From Escherichia phage LHE71: a DNA stretch of 50,158 nucleotides. Location: the sequence record OP455115; one strand, 5' to 3'. This document shows, in pieces, positions 30,048 through 48,025 of this stretch. Under the pieces are notes generated by a model that was given only the letters and a program-made list of their open reading frames with translations, did no database searches and had not been told where the DNA came from. Position 1 is the stretch's first letter. Every line of letters begins with the position of its first letter. Both the position numbers and the translations under genes were made by a program.

Positions 30048-30092
30048 AATAAATCCTCCAAAAGAAAAGGGCATCTCTCGATGCCCTTGATA

Positions 30093-33512: not shown

Positions 33513-33560
33513 GATGTTTACCTTTTTGTGCTATTTATCGGTGAACTCATTATACAGGCG

Positions 33561-33583
33561 AAAAAAAACCCGCGCAAGGCGGG
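33561..33583 (-). terminator. Intra-operon terminator/attenuator hairpin
   Basis: CCCGCGCAAGGCGGG stem-loop with 8-T run on the minus strand between I and J; near-identical copy at 35741..35762. Confidence 0.5.
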
Positions 33584-33589
33584 TTGGTT

Positions 33590-34189
33590 TTAACTCATAT
33601 CCTCAGCGTAAGAACCTGCCGAGAATGTTGCTCCACCTCCGGCGCGATACCCGTACGGAACAGGGAGAGGATATCCCGCCGCCGTCGTATTTACAGCACC
33701 ACCGAACGCGTACGAAGGTTTATTCTTGCTTGACTGAACCTCAAAATTTGCGCCGCCTGGCTGGGGTGAAATCATCTGCATCACACCACCCAGCACCATA
33801 GCACCACCCATCATGAATAGAGATGATGACATTGTACCCATTAACGCCAGAGATGCGCCGCCAGTATAGAATGCGGCAACCATTATTGCCGCGCCCAATA
33901 CAACCTGAAATAGACCTCCTGTCTTAGAGCCAGTGGGGATCGGTACGATTCTTATCTCTTTAGCACACTTGAATTTTTCCTCTTCATGTTGCCCTACGTT
34001 AACGCCATCTACGAATATTGCAAACTTGCTACGAGATCCTACTTCGCTTTGCATGTATTCTTTAAATCCATCTACCTGACTTGATAGCGCCCGTATAGCT
34101 TCCGGGTAAGAGTCAACAGCGTAACGGTGAAAGACGCCGAAGCGTCTCCCAAGTGAACCTGATAATTTGATTACTTTTACATCATTCAT
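33590..34189 (-). CDS. Tail assembly protein I-like
   Basis: 199 aa; Gly-rich hydrophobic C-terminus; position after K. Confidence 0.65.
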   Translation of the reverse strand: MNDVKVIKLSGSLGRRFGVFHRYAVDSYPEAIRALSSQVDGFKEYMQSEVGSRSKFAIFVDGVNVGQHEEEKFKCAKEIRIVPIPTGSKTGGLFQVVLGAAIMVAAFYTGGASLALMGTMSSSLFMMGGAMVLGGVMQMISPQPGGANFEVQSSKNKPSYAFGGAVNTTAAGYPLPVPYGYRAGGGATFSAGSYAEDMS

Positions 34190-34920
34190 AATTTGAGATC
34201 CTTATGGCGAACAATCAAAACGGTGTGATCCTGATACCAGCCTGAATAAATATCACGTCGCGATAGCTTACCGAAGGCATGATGCAAGATCTGATTATCA
34301 CCCAGGTAAATCCCTGCGTGATTCCATACCGGAACATTTTGCCCTATCTGCATGATTACCATATCACCAAATGAAGGATTATTCTGATCTGGTATCTCAA
34401 CGAATCCATCTTGCTTGTAATAGTCCTGATAGAGATTGATTCCGTGCTCCGGCTTCCACCATTCAAAATTCAATCGGCGATCGCGCAACTCTACTCCATG
34501 CTCTTTGTGCCACGCCATCACAAGGCCGTAACAGTCGAATGATCCTAATGACCACGGACGACCAATCAGAGGCAATTTCTCCGGCTTCACAAATCGCATA
34601 TCCCCTTCCGGCACGCTAACAATAATCCAGGTAACCTCCATCTCGTTGCACATGCACGTATCGTGAGCGCTTGGTAGAGTTGTAGCCCCGTCTCCTGTGT
34701 GGCTGTGAACAATTGCTATTGTTGTTGATTCCTCATCGTCCTCAATGCAAGCGTATTGTACAGCATCCATCATGAAATGATTCTCTGGATCACGATGCAC
34801 ATTATCAATGCGATGGTATTTTTGCACGCGGCCCTTTTGGGTGACTACCCCGCAGCATTCGCGGGGGTATTCTTCCTGAGCGTGAGTCATAATTTCAAGT
34901 TTAATTTTTGCACTAATCAT
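34186..34920 (-). CDS. Tail assembly protein K-like (JAB/MPN plus NlpC/P60)
   Basis: HSHTGDGATTLPSAHD JAMM-like motif; SD GAGGAAAAATCA. Confidence 0.75.
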   Translation of the reverse strand: MISAKIKLEIMTHAQEEYPRECCGVVTQKGRVQKYHRIDNVHRDPENHFMMDAVQYACIEDDEESTTIAIVHSHTGDGATTLPSAHDTCMCNEMEVTWIIVSVPEGDMRFVKPEKLPLIGRPWSLGSFDCYGLVMAWHKEHGVELRDRRLNFEWWKPEHGINLYQDYYKQDGFVEIPDQNNPSFGDMVIMQIGQNVPVWNHAGIYLGDNQILHHAFGKLSRRDIYSGWYQDHTVLIVRHKDLKL

Positions 34921-35699
34921 TGATTTTTCCTCTGTAGTGAAGCGACAGCGCAACCGCCAAAATCCAATTCATTGTTTGCGCCGAATCTCAGACGGCAGGC
35001 AGTTACCGTTCCCGGGCAGAAGTCGAGCGCGGGATCATCTACAGGATTATTGTCTTTGTCAAAGTAACCGTTTTGCCCGTTGTATCCGCAACCTTTCCCG
35101 GTTTTATACCAGCCACGCTGCGCCCAATAGCAAACGCTTTGCGTGAGTCGTGACGGTATCATTATTCCATCCATATCATACGGCGACGTGAGATCGAATC
35201 GTGCAACGCTCTTATCGACATAGCTCGGGCGTTCGATATAGTATACCAGCTTCCGATAAGCACCGTCAGCGATAGATCCGTCAGAGTTGATAAGCTCACG
35301 CTGAGTTATCCATATTGTAACCTTCGCTTGCATCAATCCGTTATATGCGCGAATCATCGCAGACACTCTACTATCAATGTTTGCTACCGTTAATTGTGGT
35401 TTTGTAGCCTTGCCTGAACTGTCGAACGAGATCCCTGATATACCGAACGGTCGCGCGCCGTACTGTTCACCACGGAAGGTAATTTCTTTCGGCGGTAGTG
35501 TTCCTGTTTGCTGGGCCTGCATGATTTCTTCTGGAGTGTACTGGATATTCTCCCCGTGGAATCGGTACACCTGAGCACCGAACTTACTACCATCAACTTC
35601 AATAAGGGTGATTATCTCGCCAGGATACAGTGACTGAAGGCAGTTGTGAAACAGGCTCTTTCCGCTTTCTTCATCATAAAGTTTTTTGTTTTCGCTCAT
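34917..35699 (-). CDS. Minor tail protein L-like
   Basis: Start at MSENKKLY with SD GAGGAAAAATCA; C-terminal Cys cluster CYWAQRGWYKTGKGCGY as in lambda L. Confidence 0.75.
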   Translation of the reverse strand: MSENKKLYDEESGKSLFHNCLQSLYPGEIITLIEVDGSKFGAQVYRFHGENIQYTPEEIMQAQQTGTLPPKEITFRGEQYGARPFGISGISFDSSGKATKPQLTVANIDSRVSAMIRAYNGLMQAKVTIWITQRELINSDGSIADGAYRKLVYYIERPSYVDKSVARFDLTSPYDMDGIMIPSRLTQSVCYWAQRGWYKTGKGCGYNGQNGYFDKDNNPVDDPALDFCPGTVTACRLRFGANNELDFGGCAVASLQRKNQ

Positions 35700-35740
35700 T
35701 GATTTTTCCTCTTGTTTAGTTGCAACCATTCTACAGCTAC

Positions 35741-35762
35741 AAAAAAACCCGCGCAAGGCGGG
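35741..35762 (-). terminator. Intra-operon terminator/attenuator hairpin
   Basis: Same AAAAAAACCCGCGCAAGGCGGG element as at 33561..33583, between M and L. Confidence 0.5.
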
Positions 35763-35778
35763 CTTTTGTCACTAAGTG

Positions 35779-36132
35779 CTATTGCATAGATGTAAACTGC
35801 TCCATAAACGTTACGTTAATTTCCATCACGTCTCGTGATACTGGTTTAGCTCCCAGGCTGTTAGGCTTAACAACCCATATCCCGATCTTCCCGTCCGGCG
35901 GCATCCATGCGAACGGCTTAATGCGGTGAGAATCGCAGAAGTCGTAAACAGCCATGAAATCTTCCCCGGCATAGACAACTGAATACTCGCGTCGAGTGGT
36001 GTTAAATCCAGACGATGCAAGCTGCATGTAGCCATTACCAAACTGGATGGAGCGGTCGTTATTGGTAGTGGTAAGGGAGCCACCGCCCCCTTGAACCTGC
36101 GTACACCAACCGAAAGTGTCAAGTGTCGCCAT
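35779..36132 (-). CDS. Minor tail protein M-like
   Basis: 117 aa; position between tape measure and L. Confidence 0.65.
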   Translation of the reverse strand: MATLDTFGWCTQVQGGGGSLTTTNNDRSIQFGNGYMQLASSGFNTTRREYSVVYAGEDFMAVYDFCDSHRIKPFAWMPPDGKIGIWVVKPNSLGAKPVSRDVMEINVTFMEQFTSMQ

Positions 36133-36134
36133 TA

Positions 36135-39008
36135 TTAACCTCCTGTTTTTTCCTGAATGTAATTATAAACCTCGCCGCCCTGCGAACAAGACTCACGAAT
36201 CATTTTTTTGAACATCATTTCTACACCCTGAGAAATTCCTCTCGGATCTGAACCATTGTCAACTTTAACCTCCATGCCCCTAACGTCAACGACCGTTCCA
36301 CCTGCTGATTGGTTTACTGCCTTCGGTGCTGATTTAGATGCGTTAAATCCAGAGGTTGCAACACTACCCGCAGCGGCAGCAAGCGATGTAACGGCGACAC
36401 CTGAAGATAAAGACCTAAAACCATAGGCGACAGGCGTAGGAGTTGCCTGTGATGCCGCAGAAGCACCAGACGAAGCTCCTCCAGCAAAACTCCATGTTTT
36501 ACCACCCATCATGCCCGAGATCGTATTGAAGATTACCATCTGAGCAATCATCTTTATAATCATGCCGATGATATTTTTAGCAAAGTCAGCAAAGTTTGCT
36601 TTCCCGGTAGTTAGGAATTGAACCATCATGTCAGTCATACCGTTTAGAGCACTTGACGCGATCTCGTTAACATTGCCGTACATATCCATTGCCGCATCAC
36701 CGTAATCAGCAAAAGCACTTTCAGCACCAGCTAACCAGTCAGCACGTTTGGCATCTTCCGCAGCGTAGTAATCATTTTGCGCCTTAATCATGTTCTGGAG
36801 TTTTTCGTCTCCTTCACCACCGCCAGCGTTGATATAATCAGTGGTTATTTTAGCCAGTTCCGCTTGTCGTTCCATTTCGCGAGTGCTAAGACCGCGTGAC
36901 GCGTTAAGCTGTTCTGTCGCCGCCGTCATCTCATTGACAAACTTCAGAGATTTATCGGTAAGAGCATTCAACTGTTGCTGCTTAACAATCTGATCGCCAA
37001 TCTCAGCCTTCTGTTTTGCAAGCTCTAAAACTTTCTCCTGGTTTGCAAGTAGTGCTTTTTCTTCCGTAGACAACTGACGCTTAGAACTGGCTTCACGAAG
37101 AACAGCAATCGTAGCCTCGGTAGTAAACAGTGCCTTTCTCTGTGCGGAAAGTTTTTGCCCGATCTCCTTGTGTTCCTGCAATACCTTAAGTTGAGCCTTG
37201 AGTGAGATTAACTCCTTGTCGAATTGCTCTGTCGGTGAGCGTACAATTTTCGACTGCTTATTTCGTTCTCGGTTTCGCTTATCGATCTCTTCTGCTTCTT
37301 TCCTTATTGCTTCCTTAGTTTCCTCGCTGTACTGCTTTTCAAGAGTGCGACGCTGCTTCATCGCTTCAACGTATCCCATCTCGCCTTTTTCTACGCGAGC
37401 GTTAATAGCATCAAGCTCGGATGCCAACTGGTCGTAGTTGTCGCGAGAACTTTTTACGATGTTCTCCTGCTCCTTCAGCACATCAGCACCAAAATCACTC
37501 ATGCCAGGCAGGGATTGCGTAGCCTTGATTGCAGAGGCGATAAAGTTTGAGATGTACTCATCACCTTTCGCAAGAATCATTTTTACCTGAATCACTGTAC
37601 CCTGTACCACATCAATAATCAGGTTAAGCGCCCCGAGAGTATGATCCCCTACCCATCCCCAAGCGTCAGAAGACCACTGCTTAATATCGTTCCACATTTT
37701 TTCAAGAGGTGTGGCATTGTCTGCGATCGACTTCATTCGCTTCTCCATAACTTCGGCGAATAATTTCGTTGCTTCAGACACTGCTTCCGTTTCACCCTTA
37801 GTACGGCTTAGCGTATCGACATATGTCAGTTGTCCTTTTTCTAAAAAGTTGTATTGCTCGTTAAGTTTAGCCAGACCCTTTACAGGATCGCTTGCGATTT
37901 TATCGAACTCAGCGATGATTTTACTTGCCGATTTTCCGGTTGCTGTCGACCACTCAGCGGTAGCTTTTGTGATGTTCTGAATCTGCTCTCGCGTATATTT
38001 CCCCGTACTGGCAAGTTCAGTAACAATCTCACGAATGCTTGAAATTGTTGAGTTGCTCGTCTGAGCTACCTTTTTAGCAACAGAATCAAGGTCTTCAGCC
38101 GTGACTCCTGCATAACCTCCAGTCTCAACAAGAGCCTTCTGCATATCAGTTATTGACTTGTAAGAGTCATAACCAGCTTTCGCCAGAAGACCTAACGAAC
38201 CAACAAGAACGCCAACCCCTGCCGTGACCGGATTAATATAGCTAAGCAGTACTTTAAACGTATTACCGACACCGCCGAACGAGTCCTTGATCTGACCACC
38301 TTGCTGGATGGCAACCAGCCATACAGGCATGCCGGAGGCGAGAGATGTTACGACGTCAGTAATCTGTGCCGGAAGCATTCTCATAGCCTGCTTATATTCC
38401 CCAGCGCTGATACCTGCCGCATTCATTGCTCGCCCCTGCTCTTTCAGTTTTGCGATTAGTGGCGCTGCTTCATTTGATAGTCCAAGCTGAGCCGCTTTCA
38501 GTTCCATTAACTCTGCGTGAGTTTTTCCAATAGCGTTAACCTGACTGTTCAGGGAATCCATGAACGCTTTGCTTTTCGCTGCCGCCTGCTCTTTTGCTTT
38601 CGCCTCCTGTAATGCTGCTTGGCCTTCTTCCGTAAGCATGGCACGGCTGCGAGCAAGTTTTGCGTTTTGCAGATCCAGCATTTCACCTAAACGGAAAAAC
38701 GTGTCATCTGGAACGACGCCTTGCTGCCAGAGTTTATCAAGCTGCTGGGAAGCAACTTTTAACCTCTCCATTTTTGCAACTGTAGGATCGATTGCCTTCT
38801 CTACAGCCTCGTACTCTTTTCGCTGGCGTTTAAGTTGTTCAGCGTGTTCTTTAGCCTTCTGTTTTGCAACCTCGGCCTCATTGATTAAAGACCCCATAGA
38901 GTCAGCGGCTTGGTCGTTAGCTTTTGAAAACTCTTTCAATGACTTGACGGCGCGCTGCACTGTCGACACATCAACGTCAAGCGATAGACCTGCTACCTTA
39001 TCAACCAT
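36135..39008 (-). CDS. Tail tape measure protein
   Basis: About 957 aa, helical and coiled-coil rich; start set at MVDKVAGL with SD AGGGGG. Confidence 0.85.
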
Positions 39009-39024
39009 ATAACCCCCTATATAC

Positions 39025-39045
39025 AAAAAAACCGCCAAACGGCGG
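39025..39045 (-). terminator. Intra-operon terminator/attenuator hairpin
   Basis: Stem CCGCC/GGCGG with 7-T run on the minus strand immediately upstream of the tape measure SD. Confidence 0.45.
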
Positions 39046-39046
39046 C

Positions 39047-39681
39047 TTAGTTATTCTGCTTAGCAATCATTTCAAGCGCTTTAGCTTCCATGATCCTAAC
39101 GTCCTGCAATGCCAGTTCTTCATCTTCTATTTTATAGATTTTAAACAACATAGGCAAAACATTATAATCAAGACCGTAAGCGCCAGCGCCTGAACTTCTC
39201 CACTGAGTGAGCATTGATGTAAAAACATTCCAAGCCTTCACCATTTCAGCGTCGCCAATTATCGTTTCCGGTTCCTCGTCTTCATAGTCAGAAAGACTTA
39301 AACCAACCGATCGCAATTGTTCCTCTGTTGGCGGCTTCTGATATAACAGATAGACCGCCCTTTTTAGTTTTTTGCGCGGTGTCCTGCGAGAGCCTTGATG
39401 TAAGTCGCTGTCAGGTTGTACGCTGCTGAAGGATAATACTGAACCAGTTTTCGCGCATTTTCTTCGTTAAATTCTTCTTCTAGGTTCCACCCTGAAGCGA
39501 TCTTGGTAATGAACTCGCTGTCGTTCATTTCTCCCTGGTTAGCATACATATCCTGAACTTCTTTACTGGAAAGGTGGCGTACAGTGAAAATGATCGTTGC
39601 ATCTTCACCGTTAGGCATGGTGAAGGTAACTGGAAGTTTGAAGTCTGGAAGTTGACCAAGAACGAAATTAAATTTAGCCAT
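39047..39681 (-). CDS. Tail assembly chaperone GT-like fusion made by programmed -1 frameshift
   Basis: Slippery heptamer A AAA AAC at the last codons of the 39364..39681 ORF; -1 frame continues into the 39047..39316 ORF. Confidence 0.5.
39364..39681 (-). CDS. Tail assembly chaperone G-like
   Basis: 105 aa between major tail and tape measure genes; ends at the slippery site. Confidence 0.6.
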   Translation of the reverse strand: MAKFNFVLGQLPDFKLPVTFTMPNGEDATIIFTVRHLSSKEVQDMYANQGEMNDSEFITKIASGWNLEEEFNEENARKLVQYYPSAAYNLTATYIKALAGHRAKN

Positions 39682-39703
39682 GATATTTCTCCTGATTGGT
39701 TAA

Positions 39704-39718
39704 TGGCACTTTTTGTTA
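39704..39718. promoter_or_regulatory. Palindromic motif instance upstream of the chaperone gene
   Basis: TGGCACTTTTTGTTA about 20 nt upstream of the SD. Confidence 0.4.
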
Positions 39719-39754
39719 AAAGATAATAGTGCAAAGTTGATACGATGATTTTAC

Positions 39755-39783
39755 AGAAATGAAGAAGGGGGCGCAAGCCCCCC
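39755..39783 (-). terminator. Candidate terminator/attenuator after major tail gene
   Basis: GC stem GGGGG/CCCCC followed by a T-rich tract on the minus strand. Confidence 0.4.
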
Positions 39784-39795
39784 TGTGGATATGAT

Positions 39796-40464
39796 TTAGG
39801 CACCAGGTGATGCCAGAGAGGATGAGATGAAAGTGAAATCACCCTTCAGGGATACGGCGAGTTGTACCGTTTCCATTTCGTTTACTTGCGTAGATGGAAT
39901 GTCGTTAAAAGACAAGATACCAGCCCACATGCGCATCTCGTTCGCTTTTGGAACATACATCCGAACCGCAGTTACCTGACCAGAAGAATCCAGCTTACGC
40001 AGAATAGGATAGATAGGGTTATCAAATTCGTGCGCAAAGGTGTACGTTAGCGAGATCGCAGATTTAAACGTCGGGATCTGCTGCTCTTTATCGTCGGACA
40101 AACACTGATAAGTGTAATACTGCTGCTCTCCACCGTCCTGACCAATCTCCTGCACGCAAGGGATCTCAGTCCAGCCAGTAACTTTTGCAAAGCTCATTGT
40201 ACCGCCAGCCGGGAAAACAAGAGTATCAGTAGTGTCAATTCCAGCAAGAGTAATACTTGTTTCCCGAGCGTCAGTAACAATTAGTACTCGACTAACCATC
40301 TTATTCCAAGTTGACTGAGTTACAATAACGTAATCACCTTTTGCTAAGTCGCCCTTAGATGCAACTGTAGCAACAGGATTTTTTGCGTTAGTGACAGCGG
40401 TTGCCTCGATCTCTACTCCTCGAGAGGTTTCCACGAAAATTTGCGCGCCATTTGGTAAGTGCAT
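39796..40464 (-). CDS. Major tail protein
   Basis: Start at MHLPNGAQIF with SD AAGGAG; position just upstream of the chaperone pair. Confidence 0.6.
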   Translation of the reverse strand: MHLPNGAQIFVETSRGVEIEATAVTNAKNPVATVASKGDLAKGDYVIVTQSTWNKMVSRVLIVTDARETSITLAGIDTTDTLVFPAGGTMSFAKVTGWTEIPCVQEIGQDGGEQQYYTYQCLSDDKEQQIPTFKSAISLTYTFAHEFDNPIYPILRKLDSSGQVTAVRMYVPKANEMRMWAGILSFNDIPSTQVNEMETVQLAVSLKGDFTFISSSLASPGA

Positions 40465-40466
40465 AA

Positions 40467-40865
40467 TTAAGTCTCCTTTGTGTCTACTCGTACCGTAAAG
40501 CGAACTGGAATCATCCATCCGCTTTCGTGTTTAACAATTTGATGCACGATTGCACCTTCGAAAATATAACCAACGTTAAGCATTTTACCATCTTTGAAAA
40601 AATCGGCAATCTCTTTTGCTTTCAATCTTGCCTCATCAACGCCGGAGCCTGGAGGGAACACTACGCCGATCTGAACGATTGCGATGTAAGATTTACACTT
40701 TCGGTCAATTGATAGATAAAGCGTATCCCCTTCAATGTAGTTGAACCTTAGCCACATGCCGCCATCTCTCGGCGGTGTAAAGTTCCTGTTTTCCATGTAG
40801 TGAGGAAAGTCTCTATACTTCGACAGAAAGGCGGCGCGCGCCGCCGCTGATAACTCATAGTGCAT
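40467..40865 (-). CDS. Tail terminator/completion protein candidate
   Basis: 132 aa, position before major tail gene. Confidence 0.45.
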   Translation of the reverse strand: MHYELSAAARAAFLSKYRDFPHYMENRNFTPPRDGGMWLRFNYIEGDTLYLSIDRKCKSYIAIVQIGVVFPPGSGVDEARLKAKEIADFFKDGKMLNVGYIFEGAIVHQIVKHESGWMIPVRFTVRVDTKET

Positions 40866-41298: not shown

Positions 41299-41671
41299 AG
41301 ACTGATACCCTCCGCAATACTGGACGATAGGCGACTGGTTTCAGTGACGCCTGAACCGGGCGAGCATCAACGACAACATGACGAATGCCATCAATCTCTA
41401 TATAGTCACCCTCGTTTATTTCATGATCATTATTGAAGATCCCCAAAATATCTGAGGCACGGATAGTTTCCCCGTCAATCTCACGAGCGTTCGGTCTTCG
41501 CGTCGCGCCGGATATTGGAATAACCTGTTCCATCGGTGGGATCTCGAATCCGTTTTCATCATATCCGTATTCACCTTGCTTTATCAGGTTCATAGGTCTT
41601 GAAGGATCGGTGAAGAAAGCCACGCCTTTACGAGCCATCCTTTCAATCTGTGAGTAGTTCATTAGTGGCAT
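41291..41671 (-). CDS. Head-tail adaptor/head closure protein candidate
   Basis: 126-aa ORF by position in the neck module. Confidence 0.4.
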   Translation of the reverse strand: MPLMNYSQIERMARKGVAFFTDPSRPMNLIKQGEYGYDENGFEIPPMEQVIPISGATRRPNAREIDGETIRASDILGIFNNDHEINEGDYIEIDGIRHVVVDARPVQASLKPVAYRPVLRRVSVCG

Positions 41672-42072
41672 CCTCCACGGAGTCCTGTCATTAATGCGAA
41701 TCGACCACGGCGTCGTGCTTTAAGCTGTTCGAACATCTTACCCCACGGCGTCGAAAGCATTGTGTTATCTGACTGGTTCTTAGTCACCTCTCCAAAAGTC
41801 TGGCTAAATTCACCGCTCAGGGAGAAAGACGTAACGCGTCGTGAGTATGATTCAAGATCCTCATCTTCACCTTTTAGCGCCCCATCAAGGAAAGCAAGGT
41901 GCAATGCATAAAGAGCAAGCGCCTTGACGTATGCATCTTTAAAGGTCTTCTTGCAGACGAATAGATCAGCCATTTCTACCCATGCATAAAGTGTTTCATC
42001 TGGAACTTTTCGAAGTGCCGGAACCAGCTTTCGCATTTGCTCAACAACTGCAATTAAAGTTTCTTGATTCAT
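41662..42072 (-). CDS. Head-tail connector protein candidate
   Basis: 136 aa; SD GGAGGTAAATT; by position. Confidence 0.45.
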   Translation of the reverse strand: MNQETLIAVVEQMRKLVPALRKVPDETLYAWVEMADLFVCKKTFKDAYVKALALYALHLAFLDGALKGEDEDLESYSRRVTSFSLSGEFSQTFGEVTKNQSDNTMLSTPWGKMFEQLKARRRGRFALMTGLRGGCH

Positions 42073-42085
42073 AATTTACCTCCAT

Positions 42086-42112
42086 AAAAAAAAGGCGCTA
42101 CATGAGCGCCTT
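42086..42112 (-). terminator. Intra-operon terminator/attenuator hairpin
   Basis: Stem AAGGCGCT/AGCGCCTT followed by 8-T run on the minus strand, just upstream of the next SD. Confidence 0.45.
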
Positions 42113-42117
42113 GATGA

Positions 42118-42405
42118 TTAATATTCGCCGCCGTCTTCAAGCTCTTTAACGCTTTTGCTATCCCACGGATCGGGCTTCGTGATTTTTGCCATTTCAGCGC
42201 GGATTTTTCGGTTGGTGGCACTGTCGTCTTTTACTTCGATTTCTTCGCGAGCAATCAAGCAACGCAGCCCAGGCAATTCAAGTACGGATGCCGGGAGTGT
42301 CACCTCTTCATCTGGAAGAACCTTTGCGAATGAGCCATCTTCAAGACGGAACATCTGAAGAGCTACACCAACGTTTACGATAACAACAGTTTTCTCTTTA
42401 GCCAT
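42118..42405 (-). CDS. Hypothetical structural protein
   Basis: 95-aa ORF downstream of the capsid gene. Confidence 0.45.
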   Translation of the reverse strand: MAKEKTVVIVNVGVALQMFRLEDGSFAKVLPDEEVTLPASVLELPGLRCLIAREEIEVKDDSATNRKIRAEMAKITKPDPWDSKSVKELEDGGEY

Positions 42406-42420
42406 TTTGATTTCTCCAAT

Positions 42421-42447
42421 AAAAAAGGGACTAACTAAGTTAGCCCC
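42421..42447 (-). terminator. Terminator/attenuator after major capsid gene
   Basis: Imperfect stem GGGACTAAC/GTTAGCCC followed by 6-T run on the minus strand. Confidence 0.45.
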
Positions 42448-42454
42448 TATAATA

Positions 42455-43414
42455 TTACACGCCAGTGATTAAGACAATAGTCATCGGGCGATAAATTGTA
42501 AGACCAGTACACTTAGAGGTGCAAGGCACTTTAAAGTGAAGGTCTTTCGGCTGCGCTGGCAGCATGTTAAACGCTTCCGGGATCTCGATGGACATATTCA
42601 TCGGATTCTTTTCGTACACCAGCACGCCTTTAGTTCCAGCGCCGTCGATATCTTCAAGCTCTGCGATAGAGTCGATTTCGATACCCGCGTTCTGAGACTT
42701 AAAATAGTCCAGATAAGACATGGTAGTTTCAGGCATACGGATCGCAAGAACCTTACGCATGGACGGCGGAATCAGGATGTTGGTTGCACGATGCTGACCG
42801 CGCGTAATCGTCTCGATGGTTTCGATCGCCTGAGTCAGTTCAGCCTCTGCCGTTTCCGGTTTCTGAGTTGCGCCATCCATCCACTTACCGGAGGTAATTT
42901 TGGTGATGTTCGGATGGTTGAACACGGACACGATCTTGTGCGGCGCAGAACCTTTAAACACCAGGCGGTTAACCAGTTGATCATGAGCTAACTGACACGC
43001 GCTCGCCTTGCGAGTTGACAGCGGACGACCAGTTGCCTGACCTGCTTTGATTTCGTCGATTGAGATCAGAAACGCATTACCCAAACGGAACACTTTGCCG
43101 AACTCAGAAGTACCCAGGGCATCAACAAGCGGCAGGTCGTCGGTGTAGTCAGCGATAATCTGCGCAGTGCCAACCTTATCAAAGGTCATGTATTCGAACG
43201 TCTTGTCAGTAGGAGAAAGATCGGTAGTAACCGGGAATACGCGTAGAGCGGAGCCTACCGGGTAGTCTTCTTCATAGGACTGGCTTTTGATGCGGTGTAG
43301 TTCCTGAGCGGTCCAGATACCCATCGTTGCGGCTGCATCCTGTTTTACGCCAGCCTGGATCAGATACATTTCAACATTGCTTTTATCTGCTTCATCAAAT
43401 TTTTTAGTGGTCAT
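42455..43414 (-). CDS. Major capsid protein
   Basis: 319 aa; SD AAGGAGAAG; position between decoration-like genes and neck genes. Confidence 0.7.
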   Translation of the reverse strand: MTTKKFDEADKSNVEMYLIQAGVKQDAAATMGIWTAQELHRIKSQSYEEDYPVGSALRVFPVTTDLSPTDKTFEYMTFDKVGTAQIIADYTDDLPLVDALGTSEFGKVFRLGNAFLISIDEIKAGQATGRPLSTRKASACQLAHDQLVNRLVFKGSAPHKIVSVFNHPNITKITSGKWMDGATQKPETAEAELTQAIETIETITRGQHRATNILIPPSMRKVLAIRMPETTMSYLDYFKSQNAGIEIDSIAELEDIDGAGTKGVLVYEKNPMNMSIEIPEAFNMLPAQPKDLHFKVPCTSKCTGLTIYRPMTIVLITGV

Positions 43415-43434
43415 GATTACTTCTCCTTAGTTAA

Positions 43435-43462
43435 TAAAAAAGCCGTGATTATGTTCACGGCT
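43435..43462 (-). terminator. Hairpin plus T-run upstream of the capsid gene
   Basis: Stem AGCCGTGA/TCACGGCT, with CATAAT in the loop, followed by TTTTTT on the minus strand. Confidence 0.4.
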
Positions 43463-43469
43463 TCAATAA

Positions 43470-43484
43470 TAGCACTTTTTGTTA
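43470..43484. promoter_or_regulatory. Palindromic motif instance upstream of the capsid gene
   Basis: TAGCACTTTTTGTTA adjacent to the hairpin containing CATAAT. Confidence 0.45.
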
Positions 43485-43505
43485 AAGCGTCAAAGTGTTT
43501 TTATG

Positions 43506-44273
43506 TTATGCATCAACCTCTGGCGTTGGCACCGCTTCCACGCGATAAGCAATTGTTGCCGTCGTCTTACTAGCATCATTAGCCGTCCAGGTGATATTGA
43601 AATCACCGACTGCCTCTTCACCAACAGGGGTTACAAGACCCGAGTCCGGATCGACGGTGGCGATATTGGTAGCGTCGATTGACCACTTGCCAGTCTTATC
43701 AGTTGCATTGGCTGGAAGAACATTAGCCACACACTGGATCGTAACATTGTTTGGCTGAGGACTTTTCTTGTCAGTGGTGATTGTAGCGGATTCAACAAGA
43801 ACGACAGGGGGCGGCGGCGGTGGAACGATGAAAGCATTTTGTTTCACCTGAACCTCAATAAAGTTCCCGTCTTCGTGCTTAACAAAGCCACCCGCAAAGG
43901 TCCAACCAACATAATCATCAACTCCAGTTACTGAGCCTCCAGCGCCAAATTTAAGTTTTGAGAATAGTTCTGGAGCGTCACCAATAGAAGTAAGCGCCCA
44001 CACGCGACCGTGAGAAACGACGTTGCACACTTCACCGTCTAGGATTTTACCGCTCAGGTGTTCATATTGGGAACGGAAAGCGATTCCGTAAGGTGTTGCA
44101 CCATCAGTAAGCGTGGAAACAACCTTAACGCCGTCAACAATACCGACAACTTTAACAGCAGCGCCGAACTCAATATCACCCTGAGCAACACAAGATCCAT
44201 CAATATTGTAGGTTGAAGTATCGGAAATACTGCCAGGACACGCAGGGCGTAACATTAAATTTTCATAAGCCAT
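43506..44273 (-). CDS. Capsid-associated protein with polyproline linker and C-terminal Ig-like (Big_2-like) domain
   Basis: N-terminal 150 aa paralogous to 44334..44810; PPPPPP linker; C-terminal segment matches bacterial Ig-like pattern. Confidence 0.6.
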   Translation of the reverse strand: MAYENLMLRPACPGSISDTSTYNIDGSCVAQGDIEFGAAVKVVGIVDGVKVVSTLTDGATPYGIAFRSQYEHLSGKILDGEVCNVVSHGRVWALTSIGDAPELFSKLKFGAGGSVTGVDDYVGWTFAGGFVKHEDGNFIEVQVKQNAFIVPPPPPPVVLVESATITTDKKSPQPNNVTIQCVANVLPANATDKTGKWSIDATNIATVDPDSGLVTPVGEEAVGDFNITWTANDASKTTATIAYRVEAVPTPEVDA

Positions 44274-44287
44274 AATAATTTCTCCAT

Positions 44288-44317
44288 AAAAAAAGGACCA
44301 TCCAAAAAGGATAGTCC
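44288..44317 (-). terminator. Candidate hairpin plus T-run
   Basis: Imperfect stem GGACCATCC/GGATAGTCC followed by 7-T run on the minus strand. Confidence 0.35.
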
Positions 44318-44333
44318 CAATATTAAACGCTAA

Positions 44334-44810
44334 TTACAGTTGATGCAACTGAACCTCAACAAGCCGAACATCTTTGTATTTAGTCCAACCGCCAGCGTAG
44401 GTCCAGGTTGTTTCGATCGTGCCATCAGATTTCTCTTGACCATCAACATCAAGTTTAACGGCAGAGCCGAAAGTTGGTGCTTCGGTGGATTTGGAAAGCA
44501 TCCATACTCGGCCTGAAGTCATCACGTTAATTGCGCCACCTTCTTCATAAACCATCTGGTTTTGAGCATTAACAGTCTGCCAGTGAGATCGGATTGCCAC
44601 GCCGTAAGGAGTGGTTCCGGTAGAAAGAGCCTTAACCAACTTATGACCATCAACCGCCTGAGCTTGAACAATCTGTACGGCAGCGCCAACAAAAACATCA
44701 CCTTCATTAACGACGCAAGCGCCGTCAATATTGTACTTTGAAGTATCCGCAACCATACCCGGGAGCGCAATCGCCATATCTCGCTGATAAGATGCATTAA
44801 TTTGTGCCAT
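44334..44810 (-). CDS. Capsid-associated protein, paralog of 43506..44273 N-domain
   Basis: Shared motifs DTSKYNIDGACV, TPYGVAIRS, SGRVWML, TWTYAGGW. Confidence 0.55.
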   Translation of the reverse strand: MAQINASYQRDMAIALPGMVADTSKYNIDGACVVNEGDVFVGAAVQIVQAQAVDGHKLVKALSTGTTPYGVAIRSHWQTVNAQNQMVYEEGGAINVMTSGRVWMLSKSTEAPTFGSAVKLDVDGQEKSDGTIETTWTYAGGWTKYKDVRLVEVQLHQL

Positions 44811-44821
44811 GATATTTCCCC

Positions 44822-45934
44822 TTACATTACTTTGCTTAAACGTGAATTTGGCGTAACAGGCGCGGCGTCGTTTTTCTCTTCCGGCTTACCGCCTTCGATA
44901 GAGTCGCCTTTTACTGCTTTACGCTGAATAGCCATGATATCAGAATCTTTAGCAACATCAAACATAGCGTCGATATATGCGTCTGATTTTTTACTAACAT
45001 CTTTATCAAGCATGGCTTTAACTACGGCAATCTTGACGTCTTTGATATCAAGACCATCATGTTTGACGCCTGCTGTTTCTGCTACTGCGGTAACTTCTGC
45101 GCGTGCGGCGGCATCGGCTTTTTGCTTCTCTACCTCGGCCTTAACCAGTTCCGGCAGGGAGTCAACCTTAACCTTCAGCGCATCGCGCTCAGCTTCGAAG
45201 CCATCAGCTTTACCCTGAATGGTGGCAATCTGCGCGGTTAATTTTTCGATATGGTTTGCAACTTCTTCGGTTACTTCCACATCAACTGAGTCGATCTTAA
45301 TTTTTTTCATTTGCTTGTCCTCGTTAGTTAATTGAACGTTATTATCATACGGGAACTCCTGCTCGGCATCAAGATTTAATTTAGCGATTCCCGCACGACC
45401 TTTGAAAACAAGTGCAATATGGTTGACCTTGATATTAGTCTGTACCGCGTCAAATTTCACCCAGCCTTCAGGCGGCGCTTCGTCCTGTTTCATATCCTCT
45501 TCGAAGATATATTCTCCAGTCTCATTTGAACCCCAACCAGGCTTATCAATATCAACCGAAGTATAACCAACAGATAATTCACCTGCTTCTTTTGCTTTAG
45601 CCTTGCTGATCGCGTAGTCGCTGTAAATACTCAAAGGAACTTCAACGCCAACCCCTGAAGCAATACCAGCTCCAGCACACGATCCGACAACAACGTCCTT
45701 AGCATTTTGGGGAGTCACCGTTACGTGACCGACTGTGATCGGCTTTCCTGCAAAACTTTGCAAGGAATCTTGCTTGAAAACTTCGGACGCCGGACGGAAC
45801 TCAACCCGATCGCCGTGAGGAGTTTTGTAAACCTGAGCGCCGATTCGCGCCACGATTGGGCGGTCAACTAAAAAACCGTTATCATCAAAGTGCGCCTTGA
45901 TTTTTACTGAATCGAATCTTTGCTTTGCCTTCAT
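44822..45934 (-). CDS. Prohead protease/scaffolding protein candidate
   Basis: Start at MKAKQRF with SD AGGAGA; globular N-terminal domain and coiled-coil C-terminal half. Confidence 0.5.
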   Translation of the reverse strand: MKAKQRFDSVKIKAHFDDNGFLVDRPIVARIGAQVYKTPHGDRVEFRPASEVFKQDSLQSFAGKPITVGHVTVTPQNAKDVVVGSCAGAGIASGVGVEVPLSIYSDYAISKAKAKEAGELSVGYTSVDIDKPGWGSNETGEYIFEEDMKQDEAPPEGWVKFDAVQTNIKVNHIALVFKGRAGIAKLNLDAEQEFPYDNNVQLTNEDKQMKKIKIDSVDVEVTEEVANHIEKLTAQIATIQGKADGFEAERDALKVKVDSLPELVKAEVEKQKADAAARAEVTAVAETAGVKHDGLDIKDVKIAVVKAMLDKDVSKKSDAYIDAMFDVAKDSDIMAIQRKAVKGDSIEGGKPEEKNDAAPVTPNSRLSKVM

Positions 45935-45936
45935 TT

Positions 45937-46698
45937 TTAATCTCCTGTAGAAAAGTCTGGAACAGCCCAACAGCGGCAATTGTATTCCTCACCCGGGAAT
46001 ACATGATCGGAATCTACCGCTATGCGCTTACCTTCCCATCTTACATGTTTTTCACGTTCGCGTAAATCCATCACCCCGCGCCAGAAATAGTAAGATACAC
46101 CAGCGTCTTTTATGCGCTGCCGCATCAGTCTACTGTTCCATGTTCCGACAATTCCCGACGCTCTATTTTTGGCCCAGCTACGGTAAATACCAAATCGCTC
46201 CTTAGCAAGTTCAACAACAAAATCCTTGCTTTTACCCTGACCGGATGCCGCACGAAGTTTATCAGTGAAATCAGTAACCATGTTGGCGGCAAATTTCCTG
46301 ATAGAAGTAGTCACCTGCGATCGCCACAGATTATATTGTCCTGAGTACCAGTTTTCGGCAGCGGTAGGACCAATCAGGGCTAGTAGCATCACGGCTTGAT
46401 TCTTCTTACCTCCAGCATTGCGAGCGATGCGCAGCCACTGCTTAGAGTTGAATTTATAGATCGCGAGCGCAACGGATGATAGAGAACCAATAATCGGAGC
46501 GATGAGTGATTCGACGTAATCAAGCAATGACCTTTCTGTCTGATCTATCTCTTCGTCAGTAGCGTCAAATTTCATCGGCTTTAATTCGTCACGCATTTTT
46601 TCAGTTAGTTTGGCTGCAACATCCTGTAGGGAGCGCGACATTGCGCGCTCGCTCATTTCAGGATAGCGCCACTGTGTTGCAACGCCATTAATTTTCAT
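45937..46698 (-). CDS. Head morphogenesis protein (Mu F-like)
   Basis: 253 aa; C-terminal W..GKRI...VFPGEEYNCRCW segment typical of Mu F / SPP1 gp7. Confidence 0.6.
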   Translation of the reverse strand: MKINGVATQWRYPEMSERAMSRSLQDVAAKLTEKMRDELKPMKFDATDEEIDQTERSLLDYVESLIAPIIGSLSSVALAIYKFNSKQWLRIARNAGGKKNQAVMLLALIGPTAAENWYSGQYNLWRSQVTTSIRKFAANMVTDFTDKLRAASGQGKSKDFVVELAKERFGIYRSWAKNRASGIVGTWNSRLMRQRIKDAGVSYYFWRGVMDLREREKHVRWEGKRIAVDSDHVFPGEEYNCRCWAVPDFSTGD

Positions 46699-47971
46699 CT
46701 TCTAACTTCTCCCCTAACCCCGGTTCCGGCTCAGTTGTTTCTTCCGGTTCGCGAATGTTGATGTTATTGCCATCCTTGAGTTTGAACTCAGGGGCAATAG
46801 ATCGCAAAGTGTCGCGAGCTTCTTCCAGATCGATGATTTGCTCAGTGATAGCCTTCGTGACTGACTCAACGTTATTCTTCGTGATCTCTGATTCCTCTTT
46901 CTTGCTCGGAACAGACAAAGGCTCAAACTCGATCGACCACTCTTCCTCATCAACAATGAACGGCAACAAGAACTCAAGAAGCGGCCTGTAATCTTCCTCG
47001 CGCTTGCGATCGACTAGCTTATAGAAAGTCTCAAGCGCTGTGTTTTGGCTCGCTGATACGCCGCCTACGTTCTTATTCTTGATGATAATCTCATGAATCC
47101 CGGATAGGGAGACGATGCGGTCCATCTTGCTTGACAAGAACTCAGGAACTCCGCTGATATCAGAGTTTAGAACGTCGTATTCTTCCGTCTCAGCATCGAT
47201 ACCGATCGCACGGCCTACGCCGGAGTTATCATCAACCTGAGCAAGTCGCAGGCGCGCGGCATACTGAGCATTATCATCATCACACATTTCAACAAGACCT
47301 TTGACCTTCCATACAGCCTGTTGCTTACGTCGCAAGATCTGAGTAGCCAGAGATTCACAGTAATCATAGTCACAGATTGCATCAATCAGTGACTTGTTCA
47401 ATACCGAAGCTCCCCATCCTTGATTCTGCTTTCTTGCCTGTTGCGTTACTCTTTCACCATCAGCAATAAAGACTCTTGAGTGATGAATCAGATACGGCTG
47501 CATATTGTCGCCAGGGGATACCTTGTAAATTTCAGGCTCACCATAGCGAGGGGATCTTGCATTGGTGACTCGCTTTTCAACAGAGATAGCAAATCGATCG
47601 TAAACTCGGACGCCTTCAAGTTTAGCTCCAGGTTTTGCCTGACTGGTTAACATCCTGTTGTCTTTGATGATTGCCACCATCGCCGCGCCGCCGTAAAGTC
47701 GTGCCCAACAAAGAAGATCCACCAGACTTGAATCAAGTTTGTAGCTATCCCATAAAGACTTGAACTCTTTTTCATCCTTAACGCCTGACATTTTAAAACC
47801 AGCCGTCACCATCTCTTCCGGGATAACATCCACAATTCGCTTCGCGGTTGCGTTGTCGTTGTAGAAAGAACCGACGTGATATGATGCATCAGACATAAAG
47901 AATGGCTTAGGCGAACCGTCCGCGCCGCCGTTAAAGATATCGTTATAGCCATCATGCTTAACAATTTTCAT
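46688..47971 (-). CDS. Portal protein
   Basis: Start at MKIVKHDG with SD GGAGGAAAC; size and position after terminase. Confidence 0.7.
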   Translation of the reverse strand: MKIVKHDGYNDIFNGGADGSPKPFFMSDASYHVGSFYNDNATAKRIVDVIPEEMVTAGFKMSGVKDEKEFKSLWDSYKLDSSLVDLLCWARLYGGAAMVAIIKDNRMLTSQAKPGAKLEGVRVYDRFAISVEKRVTNARSPRYGEPEIYKVSPGDNMQPYLIHHSRVFIADGERVTQQARKQNQGWGASVLNKSLIDAICDYDYCESLATQILRRKQQAVWKVKGLVEMCDDDNAQYAARLRLAQVDDNSGVGRAIGIDAETEEYDVLNSDISGVPEFLSSKMDRIVSLSGIHEIIIKNKNVGGVSASQNTALETFYKLVDRKREEDYRPLLEFLLPFIVDEEEWSIEFEPLSVPSKKEESEITKNNVESVTKAITEQIIDLEEARDTLRSIAPEFKLKDGNNINIREPEETTEPEPGLGEKLEDEN

Positions 47972-47983
47972 GTTTCCTCCAAT

Positions 47984-48009
47984 AAAAAGGGCCGTCAATT
48001 GACAGCCCT
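47984..48009 (-). terminator. Hairpin plus T-run between terminase and portal genes
   Basis: Stem GGGCCGTCAA/TTGACAGCCC followed by 5-T run on the minus strand. Confidence 0.4.
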
Positions 48010-48025
48010 AATTATATCTCATTTA

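Follow-up and report, generated by a model that had tools for sequence, protein, structure and literature searches.

Results

Hairpins with T-runs at late gene junctions

The window, the whole stretch of 50,158 nt analysed here (OP455115), is the complete genome of the T1-like (Tunavirus) Escherichia phage LHE71, with a late region 92–93% identical to T1 and relatives (~92% to T1). On its late-gene (minus) strand, nine GC-rich hairpins lie between 33.5 and 48 kb and two further ones lie after J. The composite elements before G, L and J are given further below; the others are as follows.

47981..48009, minus strand: TerL/portal, hairpin AGGGCTGTC-AATT-GACGGCCCT, then TTTTATT, running into Shine-Dalgarno GGAGG (47980-47976); portal ATG 47971; -16.1 kcal/mol, z -5.6
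44287..44318, minus strand: decoration/Ig-decoration, hairpin GGGACTATCC-TTTTT-GGATGGTCCT, then seven T; Shine-Dalgarno GGAG (44285-44282), ATG 44273; -16.3 kcal/mol, z -6.5; terminator in T1 annotation
43433..43464, minus strand: Ig-decoration/capsid, hairpin GAAGCCGTGA-ACATAA-TCACGGCTTT, then TTTATT; Shine-Dalgarno AAGGAG (43428-43423), capsid ATG 43414; -15.0 kcal/mol, z -6.6; between the capsid promoter motif and the capsid ribosome-binding site
42418..42448, minus strand: capsid/orf95, hairpin AGGGGCTAAC-TTA-GTTAGTCCCT, then TTTTTATT; Shine-Dalgarno GGAG (42417-42414), ATG 42405; stop codon 6 nt ahead of stem; -13.8 kcal/mol, z -4.5
42085..42112, minus strand: orf95/head-tail connector, hairpin AAGGCGCT-CATGT-AGCGCCTT, then eight T; Shine-Dalgarno GGAGG (42083-42079), ATG 42072; stop codon 5 nt ahead of stem; -12.0 kcal/mol, z -5.1
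39023..39048, minus strand: GT chaperone/tape measure, hairpin AAGCCGCC-GTTT-GGCGGTTT, then TTTTGT; Shine-Dalgarno GGGGG (39017-39013), ATG 39008; stem overlaps the GT stop codon; -12.3 kcal/mol, z -3.7; terminator in T1 annotation
30060..30095, minus strand: J/orf32, TAATAT (30095-30090, including the J stop), hairpin 30087-30068, T-run TTTTCTTTT, GGAGG; -15.4 kcal/mol, z -4.6; terminator in T1 annotation; beyond the interval of the first-pass annotation
29030..29054, minus strand: end of the late block, hairpin AAGCCCC-TTTC-GGGGCTT, then TTCTTTT; -12.1 kcal/mol; faces a convergent gene, no downstream ribosome-binding site; terminator in T1 annotation

Eight of the nine hairpins are strict hairpin-plus-T-run sites, while the ninth (39784-39766) has a degenerate T-run. 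Within 33400-48100 the sense strand holds 8 strict sites and the antisense strand 1, against a chance level of 1.08 ± 1.09 (maximum 5 in 200 dinucleotide shuffles), so the minus-strand elements reported in the first-pass annotation are real. No late intergenic gap of more than 20 nt lacks such an element. All 11 elements fold as single hairpins (-11 to -16.3 kcal/mol; z -2.5 to -6.6 versus shuffles), and at GT, I, orf95, MCP and J the stop codon lies anywhere from overlapping the stem to 6 nt from it. A GC-rich stem, a short loop, an adjacent U-run, the sense strand and a position just past stop codons bear out the earlier impression of intrinsic terminators. The stems have AU-rich single-stranded stretches on either side.

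At six junctions (portal, Ig-decoration, capsid, orf95, connector and tape measure) the T-run leads directly into the ribosome-binding site through a nearly fixed motif, T5-8-A-T(T)-GGAG, 7–10 nt ahead of the start codon. The earlier placement of the elements just 5′ of ribosome-binding sites thus holds for portal, capsid, tape measure and others but not for L and J, where 29–36 nt, including a -10 hexamer, separate T-run and Shine-Dalgarno. For G, L and J together, hairpin plus T-run lie 29–62 nt from the Shine-Dalgarno; the T-runs of these three composite elements and of the hairpin closing the late block have no neighbouring Shine-Dalgarno.

Terminators between structural genes of T1-like phages are already known and are annotated in T1, whose genome is ~92% identical and has orthologues of the LHE71 elements at the corresponding gene junctions. 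The GenBank record of T1 (AY216660) carries "terminator, rho-independent" at 7/9 homologous positions and at two after J, as well as a promoter in front of the capsid hairpin. It carries no annotation for the TerL/portal and major tail/G hairpins or for the promoter motifs that precede G, L, J, portal, orf95 and the tail-tube gene. The terminator annotation reportedly stems from Roberts, Martin and Kropinski (2004; PMID 14972552). In the literature the late region of T1 is also summarised as "transcriptons" flanked by terminators (PMC11447400).

Conservation among related phages

In 63 contigs of related phages (capsid identity 57–100%), the matching junctions also carry hairpin plus T-run. 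Each junction shows 8–18 distinct stem-loops, with several Watson-Crick pair types at the same stem rank; stems that have changed yet stayed complementary in such diverged relatives further support the intrinsic-terminator assignment. The element is present at TerL/portal in 9/9 T1-clade and 39/39 mid-clade loci, at capsid/orf95 in 11/11 and 37/38 (18 distinct stem-loops), and at GT/tape measure in 10/11, 36/36 and 9/10 loci.

The abutting U-run is retained at most junctions in most clades. At orf95/connector it is eroded in 16/38 mid-clade loci that retain the hairpin, and at major tail/G a full run of 6–7 T is found in 32/36 and 9/10 loci of the other clades and in 0/11 of the T1 clade. The hairpin is also kept and the U-run lost at TerL/portal in the far clade and at capsid/orf95 in L052. 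That hairpins outlast U-runs in some lineages hints at a second role.

Promoter motifs beside the hairpins

Conserved sigma-70-type promoter motifs flank at least 7/9 elements, and one more lies within the U-like gene, which argues against the single long operon proposed in the first-pass annotation. Outside the composite elements, the following motifs were found.

48011..48016, minus strand: portal -10-like TATAAT, 1 nt ahead of the stem
44320..44325, minus strand: -10-like TAATAT, 1 nt ahead of the decoration/Ig-decoration stem
43466..43493, minus strand: capsid promoter motif, TTGACG, 16-nt spacer, TGcTATTAT (canonical extended -10)
42449..42477, minus strand: orf95 promoter-like TTGTCT-17-TATTAT, across the capsid stop codon; 9/12 matches
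40582..40609, minus strand: promoter-like TTGCCG-16-TGgTAAAAT within the U-like gene, ~145 nt ahead of the major tail protein start; 9/12 matches plus TG

In an arrangement that we call type A, found before portal, Ig-decoration, capsid, orf95 and orf32, the stem is preceded at 0–2 nt (0–5 nt among relatives) by a -10-like hexamer. At the portal, TAnAAT precedes the core stem by 2–4 nt in 26/26 distinct contexts; the -35 is weak (TGGTTA, 48039-48034), and in other clades an ATAGCAC repeat lies directly upstream of the -10. The TAATAT before Ig-decoration has TTGCAT 17 nt upstream, within the end of the decoration gene, and a TTGCAT/TTGCAC-17-TAATAT-type motif is found in 15/21 contexts. The capsid motif (10/12 matches plus TG) is conserved across clades and annotated as a promoter in T1, and has the ATAGCAC repeat, copied in antisense, as its spacer. 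The orf95 -10 abuts the stem, and TTGnnn-17-TAnnAT is present in 36/38 contexts, including clades in which the capsid stop codon falls elsewhere in the spacer. Within the U-like gene, the T1 and mid clades, apart from L052, all keep GATGGTA(A/G)AATG ahead of the tail-tube gene unchanged even at third codon positions, while the codons on either side differ.

A promoter scan flags 43493, 42477 and 40609. Four junctions have conserved type A -10/-35 motifs; orf95/connector and GT/tape measure, where the same comparison of contexts across relatives gives no consistent -10/-35 and no adjacent promoter motif, serve as internal negative controls. Several -35 hexamers match at only 3/6 positions, and for motifs within coding sequence protein constraint could mimic promoter constraint. 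A type A promoter firing straight into a terminator is paradoxical unless the putative start site lies within the stem.

Composite cassettes before G, L and J

A second arrangement, type B, places a -35-like TTGCGC inside the hairpin and a conserved -10 downstream of it, with a spacer of exactly 17 nt.

39748..39784, minus strand: major tail/G, hairpin 39784-39766, -15.2 kcal/mol; -35-like TTGCGC (39776-39771) in loop and 3′ arm; degenerate T-run UCUUCAUUUC (39765-39756); -10 TAAAAT (39753-39748)
35728..35763, minus strand: M/L, hairpin CCCGC-CTTGC-GCGGG (35762-35748); -35-like TTGCGC (35756-35751); seven T (35747-35741); -10 TAGAAT (35733-35728); L ATG 35699
33549..33585, minus strand: I/J, hairpin AACCCGC-CTTGC-GCGGGTT (33585-33567); -35-like TTGCGC (33577-33572); eight T (33568-33561); -10 TATAAT (33554-33549); J ATG 33512

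The 17-nt spacer is kept in 28/33 (G), 31/34 (L) and 34/35 (J) contexts and the -10 in every one. The -35 at M/L is of TTGCGC/TTGTGC type in most of 34 contexts, and the -10 at I/J is TATAAT or TACAAT in 35/35. In LHE71 the TG before the type B -10 is one base off the canonical extended position. The identical 22-nt pair noted earlier, AAAAAAACCCGCGCAAGGCGGG, is exact: it occurs exactly twice, at 33562-33583 within the I/J cassette and at 35741-35762 within the M/L cassette, and no shuffle gave two matches. The interval first given for the former, 33561-33583, overshoots by one base, as this copy carries 8 A instead of 7. The T-run forms part of the 17-nt spacer between the hairpin-borne TTGCGC and the TAnAAT -10, such that one 37-bp cassette may both end the upstream unit and start the next; this double constraint of terminator and promoter would explain why the L and J copies are identical over 22 nt.

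Proposed termination and re-initiation in the late region

We propose that the elements are canonical Rho-independent terminators for host RNA polymerase, most of them paired with a re-initiating sigma-70-type promoter, and put the probability of this reading at about 0.7. The terminators would split the late region into ~10 short transcription units, with transcription ending and then restarting at most of them and leaking through those that no promoter adjoins. At type A junctions the -10-like hexamer sits just upstream of the stem and the T-run passes into the Shine-Dalgarno. The elements at orf95/connector and GT/tape measure must leak, because they have no adjacent promoter motif yet the downstream genes need expression. 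With the stem 5 nt past the stop codon or overlapping it, a terminating ribosome could suppress termination at these two sites; at lambda tR2, termination efficiency fell from ~0.9 to <0.1 when the distance to the upstream stop codon was cut from 28 bp to 5 bp (PMC4824070). The capsid, decoration and tail-tube genes each have an upstream promoter motif and a 3′ hairpin, and the predicted net effect is high transcript levels for these genes and lower levels for minor proteins. We found no 3′-end or 5′-end mapping for any T1-like phage in the literature and therefore infer termination, promoter activity and read-through levels from what is observed directly, namely hairpin structures that are non-randomly placed and conserved, together with the motifs that flank them. 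Termination plus re-initiation does not account for promoters being restricted to late times.

Graded attenuation, as suggested in the first-pass annotation, is plausible at orf95/connector and GT/tape measure. It cannot be a complete account: the capsid gene has to be expressed far more strongly than the portal and protease genes upstream, which attenuation alone cannot provide. In its pure form, with one upstream promoter, no internal re-initiation and hairpins as partial terminators that set structural protein ratios, we consider it unlikely. Hairpins do directly follow high-copy genes (decoration, Ig-decoration, capsid and tail tube), minor tail proteins are distal, and U-run erosion at some junctions suggests tuned strength; however, -10/-35 motifs are conserved at most junctions, and full U-runs of 6–8 behind stems of -12 to -16 kcal/mol, one after another, would let almost no transcription reach J.

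A single-promoter late operon in which a dedicated novel phage factor (Q/N-like or RNA-based) overcomes strong terminators, perhaps after loading at the ATAGCAC repeats beside promoters, is likewise improbable. The idea has its attractions: a series of 9–11 good terminators would shut off the distal genes unless polymerase read through them, a promoter motif comes immediately before a terminator at the capsid and portal junctions, as in lambda pR′-tR′, the repeat fills the capsid promoter spacer and abuts the portal -10 in other clades, and ~40 early proteins have no known function. Yet the proposed search of early proteins for Q/N-like antiterminators, now run with PHROGs, gave no match to Q, N, Nun, Psu or other antiterminator families for 30 early/middle proteins; a Pfam scan of 13 among them found no antiterminator family either, the curated, HHpred-based T1 record lists no antiterminator, and Rfam yielded no put-like RNA or any other family. 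These searches do not support a recognisable antitermination factor, on which the operon was earlier thought possibly to depend. With promoter motifs conserved at most junctions, none would be needed, and in the clade whose capsid is 57% identical the terminator comes first and the capsid promoter lies downstream of it.

That the hairpins act mainly in RNA stability or processing, either as 3′ hairpins that stop exonucleases once the RNA is cleaved or as 5′ hairpins that shield the mRNA downstream, with termination secondary, appears quite improbable as the main role. Loss of the U-run with retention of the hairpin (orf95/connector in the mid clade and major tail/G in the whole T1 clade, among others) and the AU-rich flanks fit such a role, but the stem-abutting U-run, which a pure stabiliser does not need, is mostly retained, and the elements show every sequence feature of intrinsic terminators. 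Stability and termination are not mutually exclusive. A translation-initiation module, in which the near-fixed U-rich tract would act as an enhancer by the Shine-Dalgarno and the hairpin would insulate it from upstream coding RNA, is very improbable, as the elements of G, L and J are distant from the Shine-Dalgarno, 29054-29030 has no downstream gene, and stems covary independently of the ribosome-binding site.

Comparison with known systems

The stop-to-stem distances at five LHE71 junctions fall within the range in which tR2 was almost fully repressed by terminating ribosomes (Li et al. 2015, PMC4824070), although that work used a synthetic reporter with lambda tR2. A parallel to the cassettes is offered by the promoter-early stem-loops (PeSLs) of T4-type phages, which are likewise small repeated combinations of a sigma-70 promoter and a terminator stem-loop, sited at gene-module borders and nearly identical within one genome (PMC2839356, PMC4122927). 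PeSLs, however, are found in early regions that are hyperplastic and have been linked to the shuffling of genes (PMC2839356, PMC4122927), whereas the LHE71 cassettes belong to a conserved syntenic late structural block and carry the -35 inside the hairpin.

The lambda late operon (pR′-tR′, Q) shares with LHE71 the use of host polymerase for late genes, a promoter near a terminator, and the tail genes M, L, K, I and J; unlike lambda, LHE71 has no Q homologue that we could find, and has many terminators and promoter motifs rather than one of each. In T7, the partial terminator T-phi lies right after the major capsid gene and enriches capsid mRNA relative to downstream genes, much as a terminator directly follows the capsid gene in LHE71. 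T7 has its own polymerase and one such terminator, whereas LHE71 uses host polymerase and has a terminator after almost every expression step.

Late intergenic hairpins have the form of intrinsic terminators

Across its full length, 33000–48500 is 92–93% identical to coliphage T1, SA30RD, pSf-2 and ADB-2, and T1 proteins are colinear with the window across the whole 50 kb, so the window represents a complete Tunavirus (Drexlerviridae) genome. Its late genes are encoded on the minus strand, in the order TerS, TerL, portal, morphogenesis protein, protease, decoration, Ig-decoration, major capsid, orf95, connector proteins, U-like, major tail, G/GT, tape measure, M, L, K, I, J, orf32 and orf31. 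Using a consensus scan and an RNAfold-based scan, we identified eleven hairpin elements at junctions between these genes:

48009, minus: GC-rich hairpin and T-run, TerL–portal, both scans
44318, minus: GC-rich hairpin and T-run, decoration–Ig-decoration, both scans
43464, minus: GC-rich hairpin and T-run, Ig-decoration–capsid, both scans
42448, minus: GC-rich hairpin and T-run, capsid–orf95, both scans
42112, minus: GC-rich hairpin and T-run, orf95–connector, both scans
39784, minus: hairpin with a poor T-run, major tail–G
39048, minus: GC-rich hairpin and T-run, GT–tape measure, both scans
35762, minus: GC-rich hairpin and T-run, M–L, both scans
33585, minus: GC-rich hairpin and T-run, I–J, both scans
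30087, minus: hairpin and T-run after J, J–orf32
29054, minus: hairpin and T-run after J, end of the late block

All eleven are single hairpins of −11 to −16.3 kcal/mol (z-scores −2.5 to −6.6), with stems of 7–10 pairs (A-U and G-U end pairs included) and loops of 3–6 nt, and fall within the GC-rich stem of ~5–14 bp and loop of 3–8 nt that define an intrinsic terminator. The accompanying U-run, at least 5–6 U within the 8 nt directly 3′ of the stem, is present at 10/11 sites, the exception being 39784–39766. Every element is non-coding and on the late-gene strand, its stem overlapping the stop codon or starting up to 41 nt past it, and late intergenic gaps of more than 20 nt all contain one. 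Strict criteria leave 8 sites on the sense strand of 33400–48100 and 1 on the antisense strand, compared with 1.08 ± 1.09 (maximum 5) in 200 dinucleotide shuffles of this region. The hairpins and T-runs that a first-pass annotation reported before late genes are therefore real and statistically solid, and the identical 22-nt pair that it listed is exact at 33562–33583 and 35741–35762, where the chance expectation is nil. Its placement of the T-runs just 5′ of ribosome-binding sites needs correction before L and J (minus strand), where 29–36 nt separate the two. Similar matches inside the U-like, morphogenesis, K, I and J genes are long, interrupted and weakly folded, with poor T-runs, and were considered background. 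Outside the late block, a perfect 9-bp hairpin at 15169–15189 (both strands; AAAGGAGGC-TAA-GCCTCCTTT), T-rich on the far side of each strand, sits between convergent spanin and HTH genes and is probably a bidirectional terminator.

Stem pairing is conserved across related phages

We collected 63 related contigs via the capsid protein (57–100% identity), used tblastn to place their late genes, and applied the strict criteria of the window scan to the sense strand, binning clades by capsid identity.

Loci with a hairpin and T-run at six late-gene junctions (T1 clade, ≥98% capsid identity; mid clades, 74–86%; far clade, ≤67%)
Junction: T1 clade; mid clades; far clade
TerL–portal: 9/9; 39/39; 0/9
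capsid–orf95: 11/11; 37/38; not scored
major tail–G: 0/11; 32/36; 9/10
GT–tape measure: 10/11; 36/36; 9/10
M–L: 11/11; 31/34; 9/9
I–J: 11/11; 31/32; 6/8

Each junction has 8–18 distinct stem-loops, all pairing, with several Watson-Crick pair types at one stem rank; between clades the stem sequence changes while pairing stays, in sequences that had been selected for folding. Because MAFFT/RNAalifold misaligned short hairpins with unequal loops and under-counted pairs, we used pair tables anchored at the stem base; RNAalifold on the poor MAFFT alignment of capsid–orf95 gave double changes in 6/9 pairs. Compensatory changes of the kind expected for a structure maintained by selection thus appear to be present. 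Together, stem, loop, U-run, strand and pairing argue that reading these elements as terminators, as originally proposed, was right.

Loci failing the strict test almost always retain a hairpin of −10.5 to −19 kcal/mol with an eroded U-run, so that the hairpin is more conserved than the U-run; at orf95–connector the U-run is eroded in 16/38 mid-clade loci. Two extreme cases are the TerL–portal junction of the far clade (contigs L053–L062), where a hairpin without any U-run (GTGGGCTTAACGGCCCAC-AAATCAC) still has CATAAT 2 nt upstream, and capsid–orf95 of contig L052, which also has a hairpin without a U-run (GGGACTAACTTAGTTAGTCCC-TTCGCC). Such stems suggest either a role beyond termination or recently decayed terminators.

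Promoter-like motifs accompany most hairpins

The elements follow two layouts. In the composite cassettes before G, L and J (type B), the three window copies read stem-CTTGCGC-stem-T-run-N4–5-CTGTAnAAT, and exactly 17 nt separate TTGCGC, which spans the loop and 3′ arm, from a downstream TAAAAT, TAGAAT or TATAAT. Among relatives, with 33–35 distinct contexts at each junction, every context has a TAnAAT-type −10, the commonest hexamer at the −35 position is TTGCGC, TTGTGC or TTGCGG, and the spacer is 17 nt in 28/33, 31/34 and 34/35 contexts for G, L and J, respectively. Given these conserved hexamers and their spacing, the hairpin and T-run would also constitute the −35 and spacer of a putative promoter, and this double constraint, terminator plus promoter motif, would explain the low variation of type B hairpins and the 22-nt identity. 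We rejected the label "extended −10" for these cassettes, as the TG in the window adjoins the hexamer and misses the canonical TGn position by one base, and only some clades have the canonical form.

After the major tail gene, the T1-clade hairpin (39784–39756, minus, and contigs L002–L014) keeps its stem and TTGCGC loop and has lost the T-run (CCCCCT-TCTTCATTTC); all non-T1 clades have T6–7 here. It may have been kept as the −35 carrier of the putative G promoter after its terminator function weakened. At M–L, T1-clade contig L010 is without a strict hairpin and T-run, having a junction of only 36 nt and GGCGCT 3′ of the stem, and could be a natural variant for probing the role of the cassette.

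In the remaining layout (type A; before portal, Ig-decoration, capsid, orf95, connector, tape measure and orf32), the T-run leads into the Shine-Dalgarno sequence, with consensus T5–8-A-T(T)-GGAG. At 30060–30095 (minus), a mechanical ORF call starts orf32 at ATG 30074, inside the hairpin after J; the T1 annotation starts it past the GGAGG 3′ of the T-run, in agreement with this layout. Five type A sites have a −10-like hexamer 0–2 nt upstream of the stem in the window and 0–5 nt in relatives, and a further promoter-like motif lies within a coding sequence:

Portal: −10-like TATAAT, TAAAAT or TACAAT, in 26/26 contexts
Ig-decoration: TTGCAT or TTGCAC-17-TAATAT-type, in 15/21 contexts
Capsid: TTGACG-16-TGcTATTAT
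orf95: TTGnnn-17-TAnnAT, in 36/38 contexts, including those where the capsid stop codon falls elsewhere in the spacer
orf32: −10-like TAATAT
40582–40609, minus: TTGCCG-16-TGgTAAAAT, located within the U-like gene and ~145 nt ahead of the major tail gene

The orf95–connector and GT–tape measure junctions have no consistent promoter motif across relatives and served as internal controls. Synonymous positions of the motif at 40582–40609 are invariant in T1- and mid-clade loci (74–100% capsid identity) except L052, making it a candidate promoter dedicated to the major tail protein, absent from the T1 record annotation.

A promoter directly 5′ of a terminator, as these type A motifs would form, is seemingly self-defeating. 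A start 6–9 nt past the −10 would place the first nucleotide 4–7 nt inside the 5′ arm, leaving a residual fold of 0 to −7.7 kcal/mol detached from the U-run. Transcripts from this start would then be unable to form the hairpin (a "self-blind" terminator), and those arriving from upstream would form it fully and stop. The relative order of terminator and promoter is flexible, since the capsid junction of the clade at 57% capsid identity is arranged in the usual way, terminator then promoter motif. It is conceivable, though on balance we doubt it, that type A sites of this kind and type B cassettes form a fully insulated, factor-free chain of late units, each element compressed into ~40–70 bp from promoter motif through Shine-Dalgarno.

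Termination and re-initiation as a model of late transcription

The first-pass annotation placed these terminators inside one long operon and offered graded attenuation or an antitermination factor to explain them. A single operon fits poorly with a late block in which at least 8 promoter-like motifs are conserved alongside 11 terminator-like sites. From sequence comparison, the parsimonious reading is canonical intrinsic termination followed by re-initiation, by which the late region would be divided into a series of short units. A good promoter motif precedes both the capsid gene and the tail-tube gene, in the latter case within the U-like gene, and a hairpin closely follows each; decoration genes likewise have hairpins 3′. 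Pure attenuation from one promoter cannot lift capsid expression above that of upstream portal and protease.

Termination with re-initiation also needs read-through in places, since the connector-to-U-like and tape measure–M genes are without an adjacent promoter motif. The stems ahead of them start 5 nt past the stop codon (orf95–connector) or overlap it (GT–tape measure), and short stop-to-stem distances recur among clades, with medians of 6–7 nt at several junctions. In a reporter, ribosome occlusion cut termination at lambda tR2 from ~0.9 to <0.1 once the stop codon had been placed 5 bp away (PMC4824070). The eroded U-runs of many lineages at orf95–connector are consistent with a site that is necessarily leaky.

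The proposed antitermination factor found no support. None of 30 early/middle proteins matched an antiterminator family, including the Q/N type, in PHROGs, nor did the 13 also scanned against Pfam; the only regulator-like matches among the 30 were a Cro/C2-like helix-turn-helix protein and families of unknown function. A DUF3850/ASCH-like "RNA-binding" protein (4868–5155) was discarded as a candidate because it has a common PUA-like domain, no T1 counterpart and no membership in an antiterminator family. Rfam gave no match at gathering score over the whole window, put-like RNA included, and at E ≤ 1 only two sub-threshold antisense SraG matches (E 0.2–0.6) in the late region. Given the conserved promoter motifs, late transcription would need no such factor, and the late block differs from the lambda Q/N system, in which a single late promoter has a terminator just downstream and late transcription is otherwise uninterrupted.

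A novel factor is possible, and its obvious loading site would be the ATAGCAC repeat beside several promoter motifs. This 19-nt repeat (ATAGCACnnnTTGnTAAAA) occurs 24 times in the window versus 2 expected, for example at:

1847–1865, minus
3864–3882, minus
9285–9303, plus
10407–10425, plus
24179–24197, minus
33516–33534, minus: degenerate late-region copy
35764–35782, minus: degenerate late-region copy
39703–39721, plus: degenerate late-region copy
43469–43487, plus: degenerate late-region copy

Nearly all early/middle copies are in sense orientation (not the one at 24179), and most lie ~19–20 nt upstream of a −10-like hexamer, itself within or beside a short inverted repeat of variable sequence, and ~75 nt before the start codon. 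This spacing is unsuited to a −35, and we rejected that role for ATAGCAC...TTGnTA, whose TTGnTA is separated from the −10 by ~22 nt at early promoters and, in other clades, by ~8 nt at the portal junction. The element has been described in phage TLS, with function unknown (PMC11447400).

The early region holds two genes without a T1 counterpart (6288–7115 and 7112–7591, minus), one resembling queuine tRNA-ribosyltransferase (DpdA-like; PHROG 887, E 1e-76) and its neighbor weakly matching a Vut_1/YhhQ-type transporter (Pfam E 0.019); they may form a 7-deazaguanine DNA-modification module. A DNA methyltransferase is apparently split into two overlapping ORFs (9708–10112 and 10109–10423, plus), which match the N- and C-terminal parts of PHROG 757, respectively, and could reflect a frameshift, pseudogene or sequencing error.

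Comparison with annotated and known systems

The elements are orthologues of terminators already annotated in T1. The curated T1 record (AY216660) marks rho-independent terminators at 7/9 homologous positions and at both sites after J, among 21 genome-wide, annotates a promoter 5′ of the capsid hairpin and contains no antiterminator. Other T1-like genome papers list 18–21 rho-independent terminators each (PMC4070988), and published and record annotations for these phages are all in silico; neither Term-seq nor other transcript mapping of a T1-like phage appeared in the literature searched, where the one RNA-seq paper concerned a T5-like phage. The terminators as first reported are accordingly of little consequence, as T1-family papers routinely list them and the T1 record marks these sites. 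The comparison across relatives has modest value: it counts against a hidden antiterminator and provides a concrete transcription map of a classic phage whose predicted start sites and 3′ ends can be tested. If their behavior is confirmed, compact terminator/promoter/RBS cassettes could become insulating parts for synthetic operons.

Only the putative composite terminator/promoter architecture may add to published work. It resembles the PeSL cassettes of T4-type phages (PMC2839356, PMC4122927), in which a sigma-70 promoter motif is fused to a terminator stem-loop in near-identical repeats, much as the three type B cassettes here appear to be, two of them identical over 22 nt. However, PeSLs occur in hyperplastic early regions with gene gain, loss or shuffling, whereas type B cassettes keep to the same junctions in every clade, within a syntenic structural block.
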